From contig JBFWWG010000001.1 in assembly GCA_050246315.1 (NCBI GenBank), forward strand, positions 384,001 through 448,000: a stretch of DNA of 64,000 bases, given 5' to 3'. A program made the translations under genes and the position numbers. Under the pieces are notes generated by a model. That model was given only the letters and a program-made list of their open reading frames with translations. It searched no databases and was not told the DNA's origin. Of the stretch, positions 2,179 to 63,597 are shown in pieces (position 1 is the stretch's first letter; every line of letters starts with the position of its first letter). Source of the DNA: Nitrospiraceae bacterium (lineage in GTDB: Bacteria > Nitrospirota > Nitrospiria > Nitrospirales > Nitrospiraceae).

Positions 2179-4245
2179 TTACTTCAATGTAGACTCACCG
2201 GACACGTGCGAGATCAGGTGGCGGAGCATCCGCTCCGAGCGGATGACGCCGACCAAACGCCGCGAGTCCCTGTCCTCGACGACCGGCAGCCAGTCGAGAT
2301 CGTGCTTGTTCATCACATCGCCGCCCATCAGGCTCGTGTCCTCCGGCGTGACCATGACGGGATCGACCTTCATGAAATCCCGGACGTTCGCCGTCGCGGT
2401 CTTCCCCTGGGCAAAGGCTTCGAACAACTCGTTCCTCGTGATGACCCCCTGCAAGCGTCCGTCCTGATCCAGCACGCAGAGGAATTCGAGCCCGTGCTCA
2501 TCAAACAGGCGGACGGCATCCTCAAACGTGTCGTCGGGCGAGAGGCGGTGCTCGGGGGCCATGTCCATGAAGGCGGACAGAGGCTGGCGTTCGAGAACGG
2601 CCCAGGCTTGGGTGAGCCGTGGATTCAGGCGAGGACGCCGCCATCGGAGCGTTTGGGCCATCAGATTGCGAAAGGGAGCGAGCGTGCCGGAAATTTGCGA
2701 GAAGACTTCTTTGCCCATGACGAGCACCTCGACCGCCGTGCGCGCTCGGACGCTCGCGCTGCGCACCGTTCCGTCGAGAAGCGCCATCTCGCCGAAAAAT
2801 TCTCCCGGGCCCAACCGACCGATGATCTTCGGCTGTCCCCTCGAGTCACGCCGTATGGCTTCGACCTCGCCCTGTTCGATCACATAAAAATTTATCGCCG
2901 GCTCGCCCTCGACAAAGATGATGTCGCCGGGGCGATAGTGCGCCCGCGCGATCCGTTCGGTCTGATTGGTCCTAGGGTGGGCCAGATCGCGAGGAAACAA
3001 CAGTTCCCAAGTCCAATCGAACGCGATCTTGATTCGGCGTGACCAGGAAGGGGATTTCAACAGATACACGGTCCGCCACAGCCACCAGGCCGGAAACCCC
3101 GAGAGGCGGACGCCCAGAATCTCGGCCACCGCGTTCCGCTCCCCGATGCCGCAGAGTTGGCCCAACGGCTTGAAGAAAAACGGCCTGGTGGGTTCACGCC
3201 GGAGTACCCGGACGATGTTCTCCGCCGCTTGACGCCCTTGTCGTTCGGCAAACTGACCGGTTGTTGGAGAGACCTGTTTGTCGTAGGCATTGATAATGCC
3301 GGCGCAGTCGCCGATCGCCCATAGGTTCCGCGTCCCCTGCACGCGCATGTCCGGATCCGTCAGCAACCGGCCGCCTTCCTTAGGTGCCTCAAGCCGTTGC
3401 ACCAGGAGCGGCATGGTGGTCCCGATCGTGCAGACGACTGTGGCGCCCCGGATCATCCGACCGTCCTGAAGTTCGACCCCCTCGGCCGTGGCCAACCGGG
3501 CGCGCGCGCTCAACACCATCCGGATTCCGGCCTGCTCCATCTTCGTTCGTGCAAACTCGCGCAACGTCGAGCTCACTTCCGGAAGAATCTGATCCTTGGC
3601 ATGCACCAGCGTGACGCTGACTTCGCGGGCCGTGAAATTACCGTAGAACCGCAGGCTGGCTCGCACCAGGTCATTGATCTCGCCGGCCGCCTCCACTCCG
3701 GTAAAGCCGCCGCCGACTACCACGAATGACAGATACCAACGGCGCCGGTCCGGATCATCGCAGACCTCCGCCCTTTCCAGTTGCTCCATCACGTGAAATC
3801 GCAGCGCCATGGCATCGCCGACCGACTTCAACGGAAACGCGTGGTCGGCCATGCCTGGCACGAGGCTGAGATTGACCGCGGTTCCACAGGCCAGCACCGC
3901 ATGGTCGAACGCCATACGATTCTGGCGTCCATCGTACCCCTCGTATTCCACCTCGGAGGCAGCCAGGTCGATCTGTCTGACTTCTTCCGTCCGGCACTGT
4001 ACGCGAGGCAACATCTGGCGCAACGGGACCGTGACCGCCCCGGGGTTGATCGCCGCCCCCGCCACTTCCGCCAGCAACGGGTAAAAGACCATGTTGTTCT
4101 CTTGGCTGAACAGCACAATCTCGCAAGACTGCTGAGGCAATCGCTGACGCAGGGTTCTCGCGCATTTCACGCCGGCAAATCCGCCGCCCACTATGATGAT
4201 CCGTGTCATACCCATGACTTTGATGGTCAGCCCGTCCAGACCCAT
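2179..4245 (-). CDS. ndh: Type II NADH dehydrogenase-like flavoprotein fused to a cNMP-binding domain and a CBS pair
   Basis: IIIVGGGFAG, VVVGGGFTGVE, WAIGDCA; then GEFFGEMALLDGTVRSASVRA (cNMP) and two CBS repeats. Start may be 4215 or 4209. Confidence 0.85.
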   Translation of the reverse strand: MGLDGLTIKVMGMTRIIIVGGGFAGVKCARTLRQRLPQQSCEIVLFSQENNMVFYPLLAEVAGAAINPGAVTVPLRQMLPRVQCRTEEVRQIDLAASEVEYEGYDGRQNRMAFDHAVLACGTAVNLSLVPGMADHAFPLKSVGDAMALRFHVMEQLERAEVCDDPDRRRWYLSFVVVGGGFTGVEAAGEINDLVRASLRFYGNFTAREVSVTLVHAKDQILPEVSSTLREFARTKMEQAGIRMVLSARARLATAEGVELQDGRMIRGATVVCTIGTTMPLLVQRLEAPKEGGRLLTDPDMRVQGTRNLWAIGDCAGIINAYDKQVSPTTGQFAERQGRQAAENIVRVLRREPTRPFFFKPLGQLCGIGERNAVAEILGVRLSGFPAWWLWRTVYLLKSPSWSRRIKIAFDWTWELLFPRDLAHPRTNQTERIARAHYRPGDIIFVEGEPAINFYVIEQGEVEAIRRDSRGQPKIIGRLGPGEFFGEMALLDGTVRSASVRARTAVEVLVMGKEVFSQISGTLAPFRNLMAQTLRWRRPRLNPRLTQAWAVLERQPLSAFMDMAPEHRLSPDDTFEDAVRLFDEHGLEFLCVLDQDGRLQGVITRNELFEAFAQGKTATANVRDFMKVDPVMVTPEDTSLMGGDVMNKHDLDWLPVVEDRDSRRLVGVIRSERMLRHLISHVSGESTLK
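3951..4176. repeat. 226-bp direct repeat, copy 1 (5' part of ndh)
   Basis: Identical to 5829..6054 except one base (4128 vs 6006). Confidence 0.95.
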
Positions 4246-5828: not shown

Positions 5829-6093
5829 CCTCGGAGGCAGCCAGGTCGATCTGTCTGACTTCTTCCGTCCGGCACTGTACGCGAGGCAACATCTGGCGCA
5901 ACGGGACCGTGACCGCCCCGGGGTTGATCGCCGCCCCCGCCACTTCCGCCAGCAACGGGTAAAAGACCATGTTGTTCTCTTGGCTGAACAGCACAATCTC
6001 GCAAGCCTGCTGAGGCAATCGCTGACGCAGGGTTCTCGCGCATTTCACGCCGGCGAAGCCCCCGCCGATGATGATGATTCTCGTAGGGTGCAT
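5829..6093 (-). pseudogene. Truncated 5' duplicate of the NDH-2 gene (includes repeat copy 2, 5829..6054)
   Basis: MHPTRIIIIGGGFAGVKCART...IDLAASE, then homology stops and runs into the doxX remnant. Confidence 0.9.
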
Positions 6094-7398: not shown

Positions 7399-7686
7399 GC
7401 CCACATTATTCATGATGGTTTGTGACGAAACCGCCAAGACGCCAGGCATTGGACCCGTTGCATGGCGCAACCCGCAACGGGTCCCCCGGCAACGGGTGCC
7501 GCCACGCGGAGCGCCGAGGGACCGAAGCATACTCGAAACCGTATGTTGAAGCCACGAGGGGCGAGCCTGTCCGCTTGGAAGCCGAGAACTCGCTGCCAGG
7601 CTCGTCGCAGCCGGGATACCTGTTGCTCCTAGTCAGCAACGAGTCGCACGGCGGTTGCAGGAGAAGCCATCATGAATAATGTGGGC
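7399..7686 (+). mobile_element. Structured non-coding repeat / MITE-like element, copy 1
   Basis: Perfect 20-bp TIR GCCCACATTATTCATGATGG; internal similarity to copies at 21070, 23874, 46638, 47706, 50859. Confidence 0.85.
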
Positions 7687-20770: not shown

Positions 20771-21407
20771 GTGACGTTGCGGAGAACGTGGGTGTGGTTG
20801 CTGCTCAGCGGAACGATCGGCTGCACCACGATGGCAACTGTGACGAACGTGCGCGACCAGCCTTGCCGGCAGTATTTCGCTGCGGACTTGTCCGAAATTC
20901 TGGTCGAGGAGGGAGAGGAGCCGGAGCGGGCTCAAACAATCGTCGATCATGCCGAGAAGATCGGCTCGGTCTTCGACTATGGACCTCGGCCTTTTTCGGT
21001 CAGCTCCCAGTCGGGGACCGACTATTCATTCTTCGTGGAGAAACCAGGCGAGGAGTGCCTCTTGCGACTCTAGCCCACATGATTCATGACGGTTCGTGAC
21101 GAAACCGACAAGACGCCACGCGTCGGACTCATTGCATGGAGAAGCGCAATGGGTACCCCCACGTGGAGCCCCGAGGGGGCGAAGCATACGTGAAACAGTA
21201 TGTTGAGACCATGAGGGGCGAGCCTGCCCGCCAGCATGCGTTCCAAACCGCATGCTGGCTCGTCGCAGCGGCGTATCGGCGGTTGCAGTAGAAGCGTTCA
21301 TGAATCATGTGGGCTAGGGAAGGCAGAAGGGCTTCACGCGCTATACGAACAACCTGACCTACATCCGCACGAAGAAACTCGCCGGCTGCCAATGCCGCAT
21401 AGAGTAG
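20771..21407 (+). pseudogene. Lipoprotein gene split by repeat element copy 2
   Basis: Lipobox-like ...SGTIGC; ORF ends at the element's left CTAG; joining the flanks gives an in-frame 29-codon continuation (21318..21407). Confidence 0.7.
21070..21317 (+). mobile_element. Structured non-coding repeat / MITE-like element, copy 2 (best preserved)
   Basis: Perfect 20-bp inverted ends CTAGCCCACATGATTCATGA / TCATGAATCATGTGGGCTAG. Confidence 0.9.
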
Positions 21408-21503: not shown

Positions 21504-22112
21504 ATGCCTATCACCAGAAATCACGTAGATTCAGCACGGTTCAATCCAAAAGCCACATTACCGTTCGAACTCCGCCTCAAAGACTTTGAGATGGCCATGC
21601 AGGATGTGTACGACTTCTCTTACGACATCAATTGTGGCCTGGTGGACCGGGGCTTCTTGCGACTCGACGACCTGTTGCGTCCGGCAATCATGTCCGGACT
21701 CTTGTCCGACATGCTGACCGCCAGTCTCGGCAAACACTCACGAACTCTGACCACGAATCTCTATCATCATGGACATCCCGACTTGATCGTCAATGGCATC
21801 TATCCGGATAACAAGGTAAAGGCGGGAAGAGAAGGCGTCGAGGTGAAGACGACTCGGAAGTCGGGGGGCGCCGTTGATACACATGGAGCACGAGCTCAAT
21901 GGATGTGCGTCTATGTGTATGAAACGGACGGGATGACGCAGGCCGCCAGAGACCGCAAGCCGATGACGTTCACGGAGATCTATCGCGGAAAAGTTGACCT
22001 GAAGGATTTCAGGAAGAACCCCCGTGGCGAACTTGGAACCCGCACCGCAACCTTACATAGGCATGGAATTGAAAAACTGCGGAAGAACTGGGTTTACAAA
22101 TTGAGGGAATAG
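21504..22112 (+). CDS. Putative Type II restriction endonuclease (PD-(D/E)xK)
   Basis: HPDLI...GVEVK motif; convergent with and overlapping a DNA MTase. Confidence 0.72.
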   Translation: MPITRNHVDSARFNPKATLPFELRLKDFEMAMQDVYDFSYDINCGLVDRGFLRLDDLLRPAIMSGLLSDMLTASLGKHSRTLTTNLYHHGHPDLIVNGIYPDNKVKAGREGVEVKTTRKSGGAVDTHGARAQWMCVYVYETDGMTQAARDRKPMTFTEIYRGKVDLKDFRKNPRGELGTRTATLHRHGIEKLRKNWVYKLRE

Positions 22113-23263
22113 TGTGTTCCGTTCTTGAATCCCGCGAGCTTGGGCAAGGCCCGCCGTGCCATCTCAAAGTAATGAGGGTCTTTCTCGATTCCGATGCTCG
22201 GATAACCCACGGCTTCTGCAGCCGCTAGGGTTGATCCAGCTCCACAAAATGGATCGAGTACTGTTCCCTCTCCAAGCGGGAGTACGCCACGAACCACGAT
22301 CCGCAGAAACTGCTGGGGTTTGAGGCTGGGGTGCGGCGCCAGCATCCGTTCGGATTTATGGGTCGGCGCCGACGGGATCACGTCTCCAAACGGCCTGTCC
22401 TGGGAAGGTCTCCGAAATCCTCCTGTTCCCCACTTGCGAAGATTATCCTGCACACGACCTTCGAGCGGCCTTCGGAATAACAACCATGGTTCCCACATCG
22501 ATCGAGGCATGACGCTGACTCCTGAAAATTCCTCATGTGCCGCCTTCGGCCTGTCGCCACCGCGCATGGTCATCACAAGACGCACAATCTCCCCGCGCCT
22601 TTCGAGGCCGGCCTTCGCGAGCGCACCTGAAACTACATAGGAGAGCAGGGGATTTGAGGCGACTACCACATTGGCTCCCGGTACCAGCACCGGCATCAGC
22701 AATCGCGCCCATTCGTAAAAGAATCCTTCCAGCGCCAGAAGGTCTTGGTTAGACAGTACCGTAAAGCGTGGAAGCGGGGAACGGCGCGTTCCGTCAAATG
22801 AAGGAGGAATGCGCCAGACTCCTCCTTTTCCGCGCCGCAGCTTTTCCTGCTGCTCCGACGAATACTCACATAGGCCGTATGGAGGGTCAGTGACGACAGC
22901 ATGGACGCTATTCGGTGCTTGCGTCCGAAGCCAGGCTAGACAATCAGCTTCGAGCAGGTGGGCGCCCCCGTAAAAAAAACTGCGCCAATAGTCTGGCCGA
23001 GTCTCGGCAATCCGTTCTGTAGTCCTCTCATCTACAGTCGTCCGTAACCCATAGTGCCCCCTCGATGTACGGACAAACAAGGACGGTGTGTTGAGTCGCA
23101 AGTAGGAGCGGATACTGGAGGAGGCTGCGCTTCCAATCAAATCGGTGACTTGTCGTTCGATCTGATGAACAGAGGCGCCGTGGGTTGTCGCTGAAAGAAC
23201 CGAAATAATGGCGTCTCTGACTTCTCCCGGCCGTCGTTTCGCATTCGTCACCGACATAGACAT
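22094..23263 (-). CDS. Beta-class N4/N6 DNA methyltransferase with N-terminal winged-HTH
   Basis: VTDPPY precedes HPSLKP and LDPFCGAGST; ~75-aa N-terminal extension with a wHTH pattern (DAIISVL...SIRSYL...RGHYGL). Confidence 0.9.
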   Translation of the reverse strand: MSMSVTNAKRRPGEVRDAIISVLSATTHGASVHQIERQVTDLIGSAASSSIRSYLRLNTPSLFVRTSRGHYGLRTTVDERTTERIAETRPDYWRSFFYGGAHLLEADCLAWLRTQAPNSVHAVVTDPPYGLCEYSSEQQEKLRRGKGGVWRIPPSFDGTRRSPLPRFTVLSNQDLLALEGFFYEWARLLMPVLVPGANVVVASNPLLSYVVSGALAKAGLERRGEIVRLVMTMRGGDRPKAAHEEFSGVSVMPRSMWEPWLLFRRPLEGRVQDNLRKWGTGGFRRPSQDRPFGDVIPSAPTHKSERMLAPHPSLKPQQFLRIVVRGVLPLGEGTVLDPFCGAGSTLAAAEAVGYPSIGIEKDPHYFEMARRALPKLAGFKNGTHYSLNL

Positions 23264-23348: not shown

Positions 23349-23834
23349 TCACCGCCGCTCTTTCATCGCCCGTGCCACTTCGCGCCCGGCCTCGCGCGAC
23401 TTGATCGACTCCCGCCGGTCGTAATGTTTCTTCCCTTTGGCGAGGGCGATCTCCACCTTCGCCTGCCCGCGCTTGCTGAAATAGATCTTGAGCGGCACGA
23501 TGGTGAGGCCCTTCTGCTGGGTTCGGCCCATGAGCTTGTTGATTTCCTTCCGATGCAGCAACAACTTGCGGGAACGCGTCGGGTCATGGTTCATGATGTT
23601 GCCGTGGCTGTAGGGGCTGATGTGGCAGTTGTGCAGGAAGACTTCGCCGTCCTTGATCGCGGCGAAACTGTCTTGAAGATTCACCCGCCCTTCCCGGATC
23701 GATTTCACCTCCGTGCCGCGGAGCACGATGCCGGCCTCGAAAGTCTCTTCGACGGCGTAATCGTGATAGGCCTTGCGGTTGGTGGCGGCGATCTTGTATC
23801 GCTCGCTGTCCTTCTCTTTATCGCTCTTGGTCAT
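23349..23834 (-). CDS. smpB: SsrA-binding protein
   Basis: [36 protein letters not shown]. Confidence 0.98.
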
Positions 23835-23873: not shown

Positions 23874-24152
23874 CTAGCCCATATTATTCATGACCGCTTC
23901 TACTGGAACCGCCGATACGCCGCTGCAACAAGGCTCCATGCGGCTTCTAGCGCATGGAGGCGCAGGCTCGCCGCTCGGCCCCGGGAAAGGGCGCATGCTG
24001 ATGCGCCGGGGCTGGGTGGGTGCGATCGAGGACATACTGTTTGGGGGACAGGCTCCGCGTGGGGGTACCCATTGCTCTTCTCCATGCAATGGGTCCGACG
24101 CGTGGCGTCTTGTCGGTTTCGTCACGAACCGTCATAAAAAATGTGGGGCAAG
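23874..24152 (-). mobile_element. Structured non-coding repeat / MITE-like element, copy 3 (inverted)
   Basis: CTAGCCCATATTATTCATGA at one end, degenerate other end; reverse complement closely matches copy 2 except for a replaced central block. Confidence 0.85.
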
Positions 24153-44751: not shown

Positions 44752-44768
44752 GACAATCTCAATTCTAG

Positions 44769-44866
44769 GGAAGGTCTGATCAATTCAAAATCCTAGGCCG
44801 CGATCCGCCAGATTTCCCGTCTTTTGTACACCTACCAATCGAAATTGGGAATTATTCAGACCTTCC
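44769..44866. mobile_element. 98-bp IS5-type MITE, copy A, with CTAG target duplication
   Basis: Ends GGAAGGTCTGA...TCAGACCTTCC, CTAG on both sides (44765, 44867); identical copy at 63275..63372. Confidence 0.92.
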
Positions 44867-46567
44867 CTAGCCTCGCCGCCCGGCGGCGAGCCGCTCAAAG
44901 CGGGACGCCGCACGCATGATGGCCTGTCCCAGTTTCATATAGACCAGATCCACATACAGTCGGTTCATGAATATCACGTAGAGCGTCGCGAGGAGGCTTT
45001 CCACCCAGGTCGGCATTCGGATCGTGCGGCCGTGCGCCCGCGCATAGAGATAGCCCCAGCCGGAAATCGTCAGCAGGATCATGCCGACCACCATGAGATC
45101 GAAGAGGCGACCCGGCAGCGCCGCCGCCCTAAAGTAGCCGGCGACCTCGTCCGGGTTCGGATAGAGGAAGTGGGTGAAGCTTTCCGCCGCGAATAGATAG
45201 GTGAAGATGACCAGCACCAGGGTCATCAGCATGGCCAGCGACACCTTCCAAGACGCGACCTCATGAATGCGGGTCAGCGAAAGAATAGCCTGCGACGAGG
45301 TCACCCAGATGAAAAACAGAAAAATGACGGTGCCTTGAGATTCGAGGAGGGGAATGCGCAGGATTCCGTGGGTGCCCAGGAGGATCACCAGGGGGAGGAA
45401 CAATGTCGTGAAGAACCCGGTGGACCAGGTCAAGGTCGAGAACGGCCGGTTCTCTTCCTCCTGAGCGGGGTGAGGGAACGAGGGTTCTTGCCGAGCCTTG
45501 TGAATCACGTTGCCGCAGTTGAGAAACACCGTCGCCTTGAAAATCCCGTGGGCGATGAGATGGAACACGGCCAACGAAAACGCGCCAAGGCCGCATTCCA
45601 TGATCATGTAGCCCATCTGTCCGATCGTGGAAAATCCGAGCGTCTTCTTGATGTCGTTCTGCGTCAGCATCATGGTGGCGCCCAGGATCGCCGTGAGCGT
45701 ACCGATGGCGAAGGCCACGTGCAGCGCCGTCGGACTCAGCCCGTACAGCGGCGCCAGCCGATTCATGAGAAAGCCGCCCGCATTGATGATCCCCGCATGG
45801 AGGAGCGCGTGGACCGGGGTGGGCGCATAGAGGGAACTGGGCAGCCACACGTGGATCGGAAACTGCGCCGACTTGCTCATGCCGCCGATGAGGATGAGCA
45901 AAGTCACGGCGGTGGCGCCACCGACTTCCACACCGGGCCAGAACGAGAGCGTGATCGGTGTGGAGGCGGCGCGGGCGAACAGCTCTTGGAATTCGACCGT
46001 CTCGTACAGAGAATAGGCCAGCACAATCCCCACCAGGAACGCCACGTCGCCCACGCGGAGAAACCAAAAGGTCTTGCAGGCGCCGTCGAGCGTGGCGACA
46101 TGCGCATGATTGTGCGCCAACAGAAAGAGCAGCCACGACAGAATCTGCCAAAAGACGAACAGCATGAGGAGATTGGCGCTGGAGACCATGCAGAGCAGCA
46201 CGAAGGTTGCGAAAGCGATCAGACTCATGTATCGACGATAGTGACGATCCTGATACATGTAGCGGCTCGAATAGAGATAGATGATCGTCGAGACCAAACT
46301 GATCAACGTCATCATGACGGCGCTGAGACGGTCGATGAAGAAGCCCAGCGGGAGCGCAATTCCATCGAGGGCAACCGAATCGTACAATCGGACACTCACA
46401 GGCCCCTGCGAGGACACCAGCGCCAACGCCGTGACCGATCCCAGACAGGCCGCCACGATCGGCAGGGCCCCGAGCCTCACGTGCTGCTCTTCCTGCCCGC
46501 GATCGCTGAGCGCGATCAAGATCGCGGACACCAGAGGCAGGAGCGGAACGACAATCAACCACGACAT
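44867..46567 (-). CDS. dabB: NuoL/ND5-like membrane subunit of the DIC pump (DabB/MpsA)
   Basis: IDRLS, KSAQFPIHVWLP, APTPVHALLHAG, STIGQMG, HGIFKA. Confidence 0.93.
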   Translation of the reverse strand: MSWLIVVPLLPLVSAILIALSDRGQEEQHVRLGALPIVAACLGSVTALALVSSQGPVSVRLYDSVALDGIALPLGFFIDRLSAVMMTLISLVSTIIYLYSSRYMYQDRHYRRYMSLIAFATFVLLCMVSSANLLMLFVFWQILSWLLFLLAHNHAHVATLDGACKTFWFLRVGDVAFLVGIVLAYSLYETVEFQELFARAASTPITLSFWPGVEVGGATAVTLLILIGGMSKSAQFPIHVWLPSSLYAPTPVHALLHAGIINAGGFLMNRLAPLYGLSPTALHVAFAIGTLTAILGATMMLTQNDIKKTLGFSTIGQMGYMIMECGLGAFSLAVFHLIAHGIFKATVFLNCGNVIHKARQEPSFPHPAQEEENRPFSTLTWSTGFFTTLFLPLVILLGTHGILRIPLLESQGTVIFLFFIWVTSSQAILSLTRIHEVASWKVSLAMLMTLVLVIFTYLFAAESFTHFLYPNPDEVAGYFRAAALPGRLFDLMVVGMILLTISGWGYLYARAHGRTIRMPTWVESLLATLYVIFMNRLYVDLVYMKLGQAIMRAASRFERLAAGRRG

Positions 46568-46637: not shown

Positions 46638-46885
46638 CTAGCCCGCATTCTGCATGACGGTTTGTCGCGAAAGTGCGCAGTCGCCATTCGTTGGACCGAT
46701 TGCGCGGGAAAGAGCAATGGGTACCCCCGCGCGGAGCCGCCAGGAAGGCAGGCAGACTTGAAACAGTCTGTTGACCCCACCGAGCGGCGAGGCCGCCTGC
46801 CACCATACCGTCGAAGCCGCATGGTGGCTTGTCGCAGCGGCGAAACCGCGATGGCAGTAGAAGCGTTCATGGGTCATGCGGACTC
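46638..46885 (+). mobile_element. Structured non-coding repeat / MITE-like element, copy 4
   Basis: CTAGCCCGCATTCTGCATGACGGTT ... GCAATGGGTACCCCC ... GCAGTAGAAGCGTTCATG shared with copy 2. Confidence 0.85.
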
Positions 46886-47705: not shown

Positions 47706-47915
47706 CTAGCCCGCGCCCGGATGATTCATGATGATTCGTGACGAAAGGGCGGAGTCGCGTCGCGAGATGGGTGCATGGAGACGTGAAGGTCTGAAGCAGA
47801 CTTGAAATAGTCAGTAGACCGACCGGGCGGCAAGCCCGCCCGGTCGGCTGCCCTTCCGGCGCAGCCAACCGTGTTAATGCGGGTGAGGGCTGCCCGGCCC
47901 GGTTTCGGCAGCGAC
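47706..47915 (+). mobile_element. Divergent copy 5 of the structured repeat (right end unclear)
   Basis: GCCCGGATGATTCATGATGATTCGTGACGAAA, GCATGGAGA, AAGCAGACTTGAAATAGTCAG. Confidence 0.7.
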
Positions 47916-50759: not shown

Positions 50760-50858
50760 AGCGATTGACTTGATCGCGCCGGCTTTCAACATGATGGGTG
50801 AGCGCGCCAACACCATCACCTCCGAACGACGAGAGTGGTCGCAATCGACCGGCTGGAC

Positions 50859-50980
50859 GGGCTCACCCCTCACGGCCTCAACGTACTGGTTCCAGTACGC
50901 CTCAGCCGCTCGGGTCTCCGCACGCCCGTCTCGCAGTCGACTTGGCGGTTTGCCCACGAACCGTCATGAACGATGCGGGG
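50859..50980 (-). mobile_element. Partial copy 6 of the structured repeat (inverted)
   Basis: Reverse complement CCCGCATCGTTCATGACGGTTCGTG...AAACCGCCAAG...GCGTACTGGAACCAGTACGTTGAGGCC...GAGGGG.GAGCC matches copies 1 and 2. Confidence 0.75.
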
Positions 50981-63262: not shown

Positions 63263-63597
63263 TGTATATGCTAGGGAAGGTCTGATCAATTCAAAATCCT
63301 AGGCCGCGATCCGCCAGATTTCCCGTCTTTTGTACACCTACCAATCGAAATTGGGAATTATTCAGACCTTCCCTAGAACTTAATCTGACAGTCCGGTAGC
63401 GTCCTCCCTTCATCGAAAGGAGTGAGGGCATGACGACTGAGCAGAAGATCATCAAGGCCAAAGTGGGCGTGTTGGAATTGGCGAAACAACTCGGCAATGT
63501 CTCGAAGGCCTGTCAGCTGATGGGCTATAGCCGGGACAGTTTCTATCGCTTCAAGGACCTGTATGAGACGGGAGGTGAGGCGGCCCTGGAGGTATAA
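63263..63597 (+). mobile_element. IS481-family element, left end and truncated transposase (63430..63597)
   Basis: TGT-starting end (TGTATATGCTAG|AACTTAATCTGACA once the MITE is removed); [42 protein letters not shown]. Confidence 0.85.
63275..63372. mobile_element. 98-bp IS5-type MITE, copy B, with CTAG target duplication
   Basis: Identical to 44769..44866; CTAG at 63271 and 63373. Confidence 0.92.

Follow-up and report, generated by a model that had tools for sequence, protein, structure and literature searches.

A foldback miniature inverted-repeat element of Nitrospiraceae with IS1380-type ends and base pairing maintained in the lineages that spread

Structured mobile repeats are already known in bacteria. 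In the Bacillus cereus group, bcr1 is a mobile intergenic repeat of ~155 bp with short direct repeats, and the available sections of its description report that its cruciform-like fold is kept by compensatory base changes, that its copies appear to lose structural stability with time, and that it is transcribed (Delihas 2011, PMC3184786). In a 64,000-nt stretch of a Nitrospira genome (hereafter the window) we identified several copies of a non-coding repeat that is a non-autonomous foldback MITE (miniature inverted-repeat transposable element) of Nitrospiraceae. Its pairing is maintained through many independent compensatory changes in the lineages that spread, and its resident copies decay. 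By analogy, the family may be seen as adding a structured MITE comparable to bcr1, since both are small mobile repeats whose fold is kept via compensatory change and whose ageing copies appear to lose structure. However, the two are unrelated in sequence and occur in different host phyla, and no partner transposase is named for bcr1 in the sections cited, whereas a partner insertion sequence (IS) family is found here.

The element also resembles Nezha, Chunjie, Correia/nemis and ERIC as these are presented in the accessible part of the same source (PMC3184786), in that all are short and non-coding, have terminal inverted repeats (TIRs) in common with an IS and a duplicated target, occur at sites that are filled or empty between relatives, and are predicted to fold very stably. 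In contrast to these repeats, the Nitrospira fold has quantitative support from a covariation test that includes a tree-based control, the constraint on it is placed in propagating lineages, and its architecture is modular (188, 209, 240 and 270 nt); homology to them was compared through an Rfam scan only. No description of a MITE derived from the IS1380 family was found in the mostly non-subscription literature covered, and searches of the same kind on Nitrospira repeat content (miniature inverted-repeat, repetitive extragenic palindromic, IS1380) returned no description of the element. Nitrospira goes unmentioned in the main text of Nadal-Molero 2024 (PMC11602168).

The family to which the ends of the element point has eukaryotic relatives. 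According to the available part of one account, piggyBac has IS1380 transposases as its outgroup among prokaryotes, it duplicates TTAA, rarely TTAG, CTAA or TCAA, and its TIRs start with CCC (PMC10813416). As far as that part goes, the Nitrospira element shares with piggyBac the CCC...GGG ends and a duplicated 4-bp target with a central TA, and differs from it in using YTAR rather than TTAA (PMC10813416). Within the IS1380 family (IS1380, IS1247, ISEcp1), the accessible portion of another source gives IS1247 as 1672 bp long with inverted repeats matching at 13/16 positions and a direct repeat of 5 bp, and the partner ISs described below, at 1.68-1.70 kb, are close to this length (PMC3281130). 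The window differs from these systems in holding a non-coding derivative only, and no transposase of the family was found in the genome to which it belongs.

That genome, here called G000, is a 4,385,457-bp (4.39-Mb) Nitrospira assembly in 30 contigs, and the window corresponds to C1:384001-448000 (window coordinates are contig coordinates minus 384000). A sequence-only reading of the window had claimed six copies, deduced from these that the family is large, and proposed a dispersed, non-autonomous mobile element moved in trans. All six copies were recovered by exact-seed repeat finding, which included inverted relations, and by alignment, which showed common ends and a common core. An nhmmer profile made from four window copies gave 180 matches at E<1e-3 genome-wide, bearing out the large family; the 169 non-overlapping matches amount to 26,053 bp, or 0.59% of G000. 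End-to-end coverage was obtained for 65 matches, representing 63 non-overlapping near-full copies. The proposal of a mobile family moved in trans is likewise supported.

The near-full copies all begin with CCCRCATTATTCATGAC and finish with GTCATGAATAATGYGGG (17-bp termini). TIRs are present, with CCCRCATTATTCATGA pairing with TCATGAATAATGYGGG, and the terminal helices are 95-98% paired in the 42 copies aligned below. The element is inserted in a duplicated 4-bp YTAR target (CTAG, TTAG or CTAA), and the CTAG that had been noticed at the copy ends is this target-site duplication. Identical 4-mers stand on both sides of 25 of the 63 near-full copies. Counted separately for the left and right flanks, CTAG occurs 22 and 21 times, TTAG 14 and 11 times, and CTAA 4 and 8 times, and the first base of the flanking 4-mer covaries between the sides (C/C in 35 copies and T/T in 17, together 52, vs five with C/T or T/C). 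Perfect duplications flank 4/4 of the youngest copies, which are 96-100% alike and include copy 2 of the window. An IS630-style duplication of TA within a CTAG target was ruled out: since the outer bases of the two flanking 4-mers covary, the duplication is not limited to a TA within a fixed G...C terminus. A 6-bp NCTAGN duplication in the style of IS481 would need G before the left CTAG, where we observed C 31, G 14, T 14 and A 4 times. A 40-bp mini derivative consisting of barely more than the two ends, CTAG-CCCGCATTATTCATGACGGTTCGTCACGAATAATGCGGG-CTAG, occurs in another Nitrospira genome (locus L095).

Comparison with empty sites, which the sequence-only reading had suggested, revealed sites that are filled or empty between close relatives. 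Copy 2 (21074-21313, plus strand, 240 nt, with CTAG at 21070-21073 and 21314-21317) is matched by a clean empty site in G002, a close relative, whose sequence is GCGACT-CTAT-GGCAGG, with a single CTAT, at the point where G000 reads GCGACT-CTAG-[240 nt]-CTAG-GGAAGG; the flanks in G002 are 93% and 88% identical. Copy 3 (23878-24147, minus strand, 270 nt; 23874-24151 with flanks) is absent at its site from all three congeners compared (G001, G002 and G003), and is a recent gain specific to G000. An orthologue of copy 4 (46642-46882, plus strand, 241 nt, with CTAG on the left side only, from 46638) is present in G002. The same locus measures 321 nt including the copy in G000 vs 79 nt in G001 and G003; no match to copy 4 was found in that 79-nt spacer, which is too diverged to place the junction. 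In the reverse direction, a MITE at locus L089 corresponds to an empty site in G000. At copy 1 (7400-7685, plus strand, 286 nt, the core plus two extra hairpin modules) synteny is broken in all three congeners, so that no empty-site comparison is possible, and its flanking 4-mers, ATTG and CGAA, show no recognisable duplication.

The CC-type ends and 4-bp duplication pointed to the IS1380 family, which is described as having direct repeats of 4-5 bp and ends starting with CC. The Pfam domain PF13701 matches 29 of 81 Nitrospiraceae genomes, and 20 PF13701 loci were fetched for inspection of their ends. Three ISs, L130 (1700 bp), L133 (1696 bp) and L141 (1676 bp), have CCCGCATTATTCAYGAC-type ends and CTAG, TTAG or CTAA flanks; L141 belongs to an unpublished genome, G009, and no conclusion here depends on it by itself. 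At L129 and L131 a pattern search found one CCCGCATTATTCAYGAC-type end, and visual inspection gave the other. No convincing end was found at L128 and L132, two of the six best-scoring loci, L128 being only a 2.3-kb contig. With NCBIfam NF033539, 'IS1380 family transposase' (cut-off 180), the 554-aa transposase of L130 reaches 379 bits, and with PF13701 (cut-off 34.7) it reaches 419 bits. Both ends of the MITE are closer to the IS end downstream of the transposase gene (14-17/17 positions) than to the other end (11-13/17). The IS1380-type traits of a 4-bp duplication and CCC...GGG ends are present, and a second IS1380-type IS, in G001, also starts with (G)CCC. A transposase of the IS1380 lineage, related to piggyBac, very probably moves the foldback MITE in trans. 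A RAYT, IS110 or TnpB partner had been among the candidates of the sequence-only reading; we found instead a DDE transposase of the IS1380 family, with the same 17-bp ends and YTAR flanks.

The same reading had suggested longer copies with the same ends around a transposase gene. In relatives such copies exist, as ISs in which these ends enclose a DDE (IS1380) gene, but the IS110-containing copies proved to be MITEs into which IS110 elements had inserted. Within G000, seven of nine end pairs lying 400-6000 bp apart were examined as candidates for an autonomous partner: two are MITEs with IS110 insertions, and each of the remaining five either surrounds ordinary genes or has no persuasive second end. 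In the wider survey with a 24-nt terminal pattern (below), 28 loci had no right end within reach, and the 20 inspected were truncated copies, copies with other insertions or copies cut by the locus edge, none of them an IS. An IS5 partner, suggested by the YTAR target, was rejected, as the sole IS5-group element of G000 has unrelated ends, GGAAGGTCTGATTAATTC. This element lies at C2 about 516930-518135 (about 517081-518061), encodes a 327-aa transposase between the GGAAGGTCTGATTAATTC ends and has a TTAG duplication.

The 190-300 nt between the termini form an imperfect palindrome that consists of a terminal rod, a long central hairpin and optional side hairpins. We measured 154 complete copies (63 from G000 and 91 from other genomes), most of them 188-385 nt long and 12 shorter, and grouping of the length list gives size classes near 188, 209, 240 and 270 nt. 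These differ by optional hairpins of ~21 and ~31 nt at several positions. The covariation alignment comprises 42 copies of 208-211 nt, 18 from G000 and 24 from other Nitrospira genomes. For this 209-nt class RNAalifold gives a consensus of 65 pairs, in which the terminal rod joins columns 1-54 with 161-216 and the side hairpin occupies columns 128-158. The 188-nt class lacks the side hairpin, and the central hairpin ends in the conserved loop TTGAAACA. The stems picked out from the window alone, a terminal one that reads CATTATT/AATAATG in one copy and CATGATT/AATCATG in another and a 5-bp one around a GAA-containing loop, are present.

Compensatory change is found in 33 of the 65 consensus pairs, with the alternatives at several pairs in near-equal proportions (for example U-A 20 vs A-U 19; C-G 24 vs G-C 16; and C-G 15, A-U 15 and G-C 5 at one pair). 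Cells of the alignment are paired in 96.0% of cases, compared with 87.3±0.4% in 500 shuffles, none of which reaches the observed value, and 28-40% when partners are slid. Pairs changed on both sides number 33, vs 19.8±2.1 in the shuffles and 9-20 with slid partners; for cells changed on both sides the figures are 260, 95±9 and 16-46. As a control for shared ancestry, branches on which both partners change were counted by Fitch parsimony on a FastTree tree and compared with control columns matched by number of changes. The 209-nt class has 61 such co-change branches, vs 12.8±3.2 (maximum 23) in 1000 controls, and the 188-nt class has 16, vs 3.9±1.8 (maximum 11) in as many. Two or more independent co-change branches are seen at 17 pairs of the 209-nt class; the controls average 2.0 such pairs and never exceed 6. 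The internal compensatory change that had been reported between the window copies is therefore genuine and persists when phylogeny is modelled (61 vs 12.8±3.2).

The mode of change leaves room for another origin of the covariation. About half of the frequent pair swaps are flips from G-C to C-G or from A-U to U-A, and because these pass through no wobble intermediate, templated correction of a palindrome fits them as well as selection does. In this main rival explanation, covariation is a by-product of palindrome correction at the DNA level, through template switching or arm-to-arm conversion in replication or repair, and the fold has no role. The whole element is one long imperfect palindrome, as such a process would have it. 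Both ends resemble the same IS end, which suggests that the element began by inverted duplication. New hairpin modules arise, expand and nest, the 188-nt and 209-nt classes being one perfect hairpin apart, and local hairpins show no strand bias. Common G·T wobbles persist, however, and A·C is rare, which correction towards perfect pairs does not predict. The behaviour of resident copies also bears on this explanation.

We took singletons, changes private to one copy, as the best proxy for change after insertion, and alleles found in at least three copies as inherited from source elements. Singletons are as frequent per column in paired as in unpaired positions, with 0.56 vs 0.57 in the 209-nt class and 0.42 vs 0.40 in the 188-nt class. 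When a singleton falls in a paired column, the two bases no longer pair in 46 of 73 cases (209-nt class) and 34 of 50 (188-nt class). Among alleles common to at least three copies, 579 of 636 cells (209-nt class) and 170 of 196 (188-nt class) are paired. The orthologous copy 4 decays faster than its flanks, with 27 of 241 columns differing between G000 and G002 and flanks 94-97% identical (one orthologous pair). Singletons are thus equally frequent in and out of stems and mostly break pairs, and copy 4 has decayed, from which we conclude that it is the spreading lineages that keep the pairing, and that resident copies, which decay, do not. For palindrome correction this is the principal difficulty: resident copies are uncorrected, private mutations mostly leaving their pairs broken (46/73 and 34/50), and the G002 orthologue has lost 15 of 17 affected pairs, so that any correction would have to go hand in hand with spreading itself. 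We regard correction as the whole explanation as rather unlikely.

The reading that we prefer is that pairing either is important to the element's propagation or comes about in the course of it, with no host function at each locus, and we give it a probability of about 0.65. A tentative mechanism, to which we would give somewhat less than even odds, is that pairing within a strand, in the form of a hairpin or extruded cruciform, would hold the two ends of this short element of ~200 bp side by side for the transposase, in which case only well-paired variants would keep transposing. In a second version, propagation would need the G-rich top strand folded into a conserved Y-shaped rod as single-stranded DNA or RNA, which we consider decidedly improbable.

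Several observations weigh against the explanation as a whole, from the IS1380 partner to the mechanism, in addition to the pair flips described above. The MITE and the ISs have in common only the terminal 17-18 bp, so that we infer mobilisation from these ends. No copy or fragment of the partner IS was found in G000 by blastn or tblastn at 1e-3, and PF13701 has no match there, yet G000 carries four copies that are 96-100% alike; this absence is weak evidence, as a 30-contig assembly may lack multicopy ISs. The flanks of copy 3 are irregular, reading CTAG and GCAA on the plus strand vs TTGA or ATGA in the empty sites, and do not form a clean duplication. Singletons may include variants from unsampled subfamilies. 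At copy 4, 15 of the 17 differences at G000-paired bases break the pair in G002, a count that uses the structure from G000 and is biased towards 'broken in G002'. Finally, each of the two versions of the mechanism meets an unfavourable observation in the strand data.

The sequence-only reading had taken the internal compensatory change as a sign of selection on a folded RNA or single-stranded DNA. Evidence for one particular folded strand is mixed. The predicted fold of the top strand is more stable than that of the bottom strand in 127 of 154 copies (mean RNA energies -109.0 vs -100.3 kcal/mol), and predictions with DNA parameters agree, favouring the top strand in 133 of 154. In a strand-neutral set of pairs, singletons show no preference for G·T over A·C (25 v 23 and 14 v 14), and alleles in at least three copies show more G·T than A·C pair types (13 v 1 and 13 v 6). 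A cruciform treats both strands alike, so the G·T excess (13 v 1, 13 v 6) and the top-strand stability (127/154) speak against the cruciform version. Conversely, local hairpins with exactly one mismatch have no G·T excess (59 v 52, 19 v 33 and 6 v 14), which speaks against the single-strand version. Pairs predicted on both strands include similar numbers of G·T and A·C (31 v 26 and 36 v 23). The copies counted are of common ancestry, so these are not independent events.

The strand and context data bear as well on a host function, in which the element would act as structured RNA, either as a read-through rod that stabilises, ends or processes the neighbouring mRNA, as considered for ERIC, Correia and bcr1, or as a small RNA of its own. 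Copy 2 has a very stable predicted RNA fold (-125.6 kcal/mol, z = -8.0), and its complement is predicted at -120.0 kcal/mol, z = -7.5. Greater predicted stability of the top strand (127/154) and tolerance of common G·U pairs are in keeping with this explanation, and bcr1, transcribed and showing compensatory changes, provides a precedent in the available sections of its description (PMC3184786). According to our own crude gene caller (3529 genes, 80% of the genome), 61 of the 63 near-full copies are intergenic, and 18 of the 63 are abutted by a gene's stop codon that lies within the duplicated YTAR, so that the duplication restores the stop. Between tandem genes, 26 copies lie opposite to the genes and 12 in the same direction, a bias that, like these positions, counts in favour of a host RNA. 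However, 14 of the 18 copies at stop codons are opposite to the gene, an orientation in which the read-through RNA would be the less stable bottom strand, and the orientation bias may be a consequence of a preference for TTAG over CTAA. Neither a sigma-70-like promoter nor an intrinsic terminator was found inside copies 2 and 4. Metatranscriptome runs containing this region exist, 20 of them listed. Rfam 15 gave no match at gathering score over the whole window and none at E up to 1 on three copies, so that the catalogued Rfam family left open by the sequence-only reading did not appear. Resident copies, moreover, show no purifying selection on pairing. Taken with these points, a host RNA function is improbable.

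A single-stranded substrate for a Y1 transposase (RAYT or IS200-type) at the replication fork, as in REPINs, would also call for a folded strand. Eight matches to PF01797 (Y1 transposase) are encoded in G000, four with open frames of 307-328 aa (C20:16382-16708, C4:264748-265071, C4:302449-302772 and C1:569545-569868) and four weaker, and the CCCRTTGC-loop-GCAAYGGG hairpin that recurs in the MITE is also found in other repeats of the genome. None of the Y1 genes adjoins a MITE, and none of the eight has the hairpin motif or a MITE within 1.5 kb. To our knowledge, the repetitive extragenic palindromic (REP) repeats of REPIN/RAYT systems have neither TIRs nor target duplication, and REP hairpins flank or accompany the RAYT gene, whereas the Nitrospira element has both TIRs and a 4-bp target duplication. 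Its orientation is associated neither with local GC skew (odds ratio 1.03) nor with gene-strand bias, and there is no replication-strand bias. A REPIN-like origin can hardly be credited on this evidence.

The optional hairpins that set the size classes apart are in many cases of the CCCRTTGC-loop-GCAAYGGG type, and some are nested inside one another; the 209-nt class has one extra perfect hairpin compared with the 188-nt class. Outside the MITE family the same hairpin is found in at least three other recurring sequence contexts, for example at C2:272985, C3:272110 and C4:304279, and at C1:649101, C2:622847, C3:111084 and C6:198675. A loose version of the hairpin pattern occurs 148 times in G000, 65 of these in or near MITE matches, compared with 46 in the reversed-genome control. 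The central hairpin, GCATAC-TTGAAACA-GTATG, lies at 7527-7545, 21184-21202 and 46752-46770 in copies 1, 2 and 4. In copy 2 (21184-21202, plus strand) it reads GCATAC-GTGAAACA-GTATG and forms the apex of the long central stem.

Two MITE copies contain, at precisely one and the same position, different IS110-family elements (C10:117957-119096 and C10:34250-35379) that share 67% identity. The insertion point is between ...GAG and the central hairpin GCAKAC..., immediately 5' of the hairpin, and both have the same orientation relative to the MITE. The conserved centre of the MITE seems to be a specific target of these IS110 elements. A 277-nt fragment at C3:336174-336450 is 98% like the first of the two (C10:117957-119096).

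The remaining copies in the window are partial. Copy 5 (47716-47853, plus strand) is divergent and covers profile positions 2-170. Copy 6 (50855-50979, minus strand) is a half element covering profile positions 2-158, situated within a coding region that runs uninterrupted in G001. Across the insert the G000 reading frame is shifted, and therefore the gene that holds it is probably broken or shortened there. Copy 1 has an SDR-like gene to its left, on the minus strand, and a 709-aa open reading frame (ORF) as its other neighbour. Copies 2 and 3 are inverted relative to each other, their outer 97 nt being 94% complementary. Between them are a DNA methylase gene (22094-23263, minus strand, PF01555), an adjoining 202-aa ORF (21504-22112) that has no family match, and smpB (23349-23834). 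G002 has other genes instead of the methylase region (2388 nt unmatched, with ORFs of 445 and 211 aa). Also in G002, ~165 nt of another hairpin-bearing repeat abuts the left end of copy 4 (locus L177, C17:43700-44260), where G000 has nothing. The window contains two direct repeats unrelated to the MITE, one of 250 nt with 97% identity (3951-4200 / 5829-6078) and the other of 109 nt with 99% identity (44762-44870 / 63268-63376).

With copy 2 as the query, the element was found in 18 of 41 related genomes. Within the same family 16 of 24 other genomes have it, as does one of 16 from the three other families of the order. A search with a 24-nt terminal pattern, using one genome per species, matched at least 119 stretches. 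With four exceptions, the 80 matches listed carry Nitrospira, Nitrospiraceae, Nitrospirae or Nitrospirota in their titles, N. moscoviensis NSP M-1 among them; the exceptions are an Acidobacteriota metagenome-assembled genome (MAG), a Candidatus Deferrimicrobium MAG, an 'uncultured bacterium' and an 'uncultured Nitrosospira sp. isolate NOB2'.

Nitrospira play a key part in nitrite oxidation and in complete ammonia oxidation, and this family makes up about 0.6% of the genome of one of them, where its copies lie at stop codons, between genes and, once, within a coding region that is interrupted. The MITE serves as a landing site for IS110 elements. It may also break assemblies, as the match to a G002 contig stops at the start of copy 5, and knowing its ends and its target aids annotation and the comparison of strains. 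The CCC...GGG ends and the 4-bp duplication with its central TA parallel those of eukaryotic piggyBac. If the single-strand version of the mechanism were true, a bacterial DDE transposase of piggyBac type (IS1380) would depend on a structured single-stranded nucleic acid, as substrate or cofactor. Its size and diversity make the family suitable for addressing the old question of why MITEs fold so well, and, with the constraint placed in propagating lineages rather than in resident copies, that question becomes experimentally addressable.

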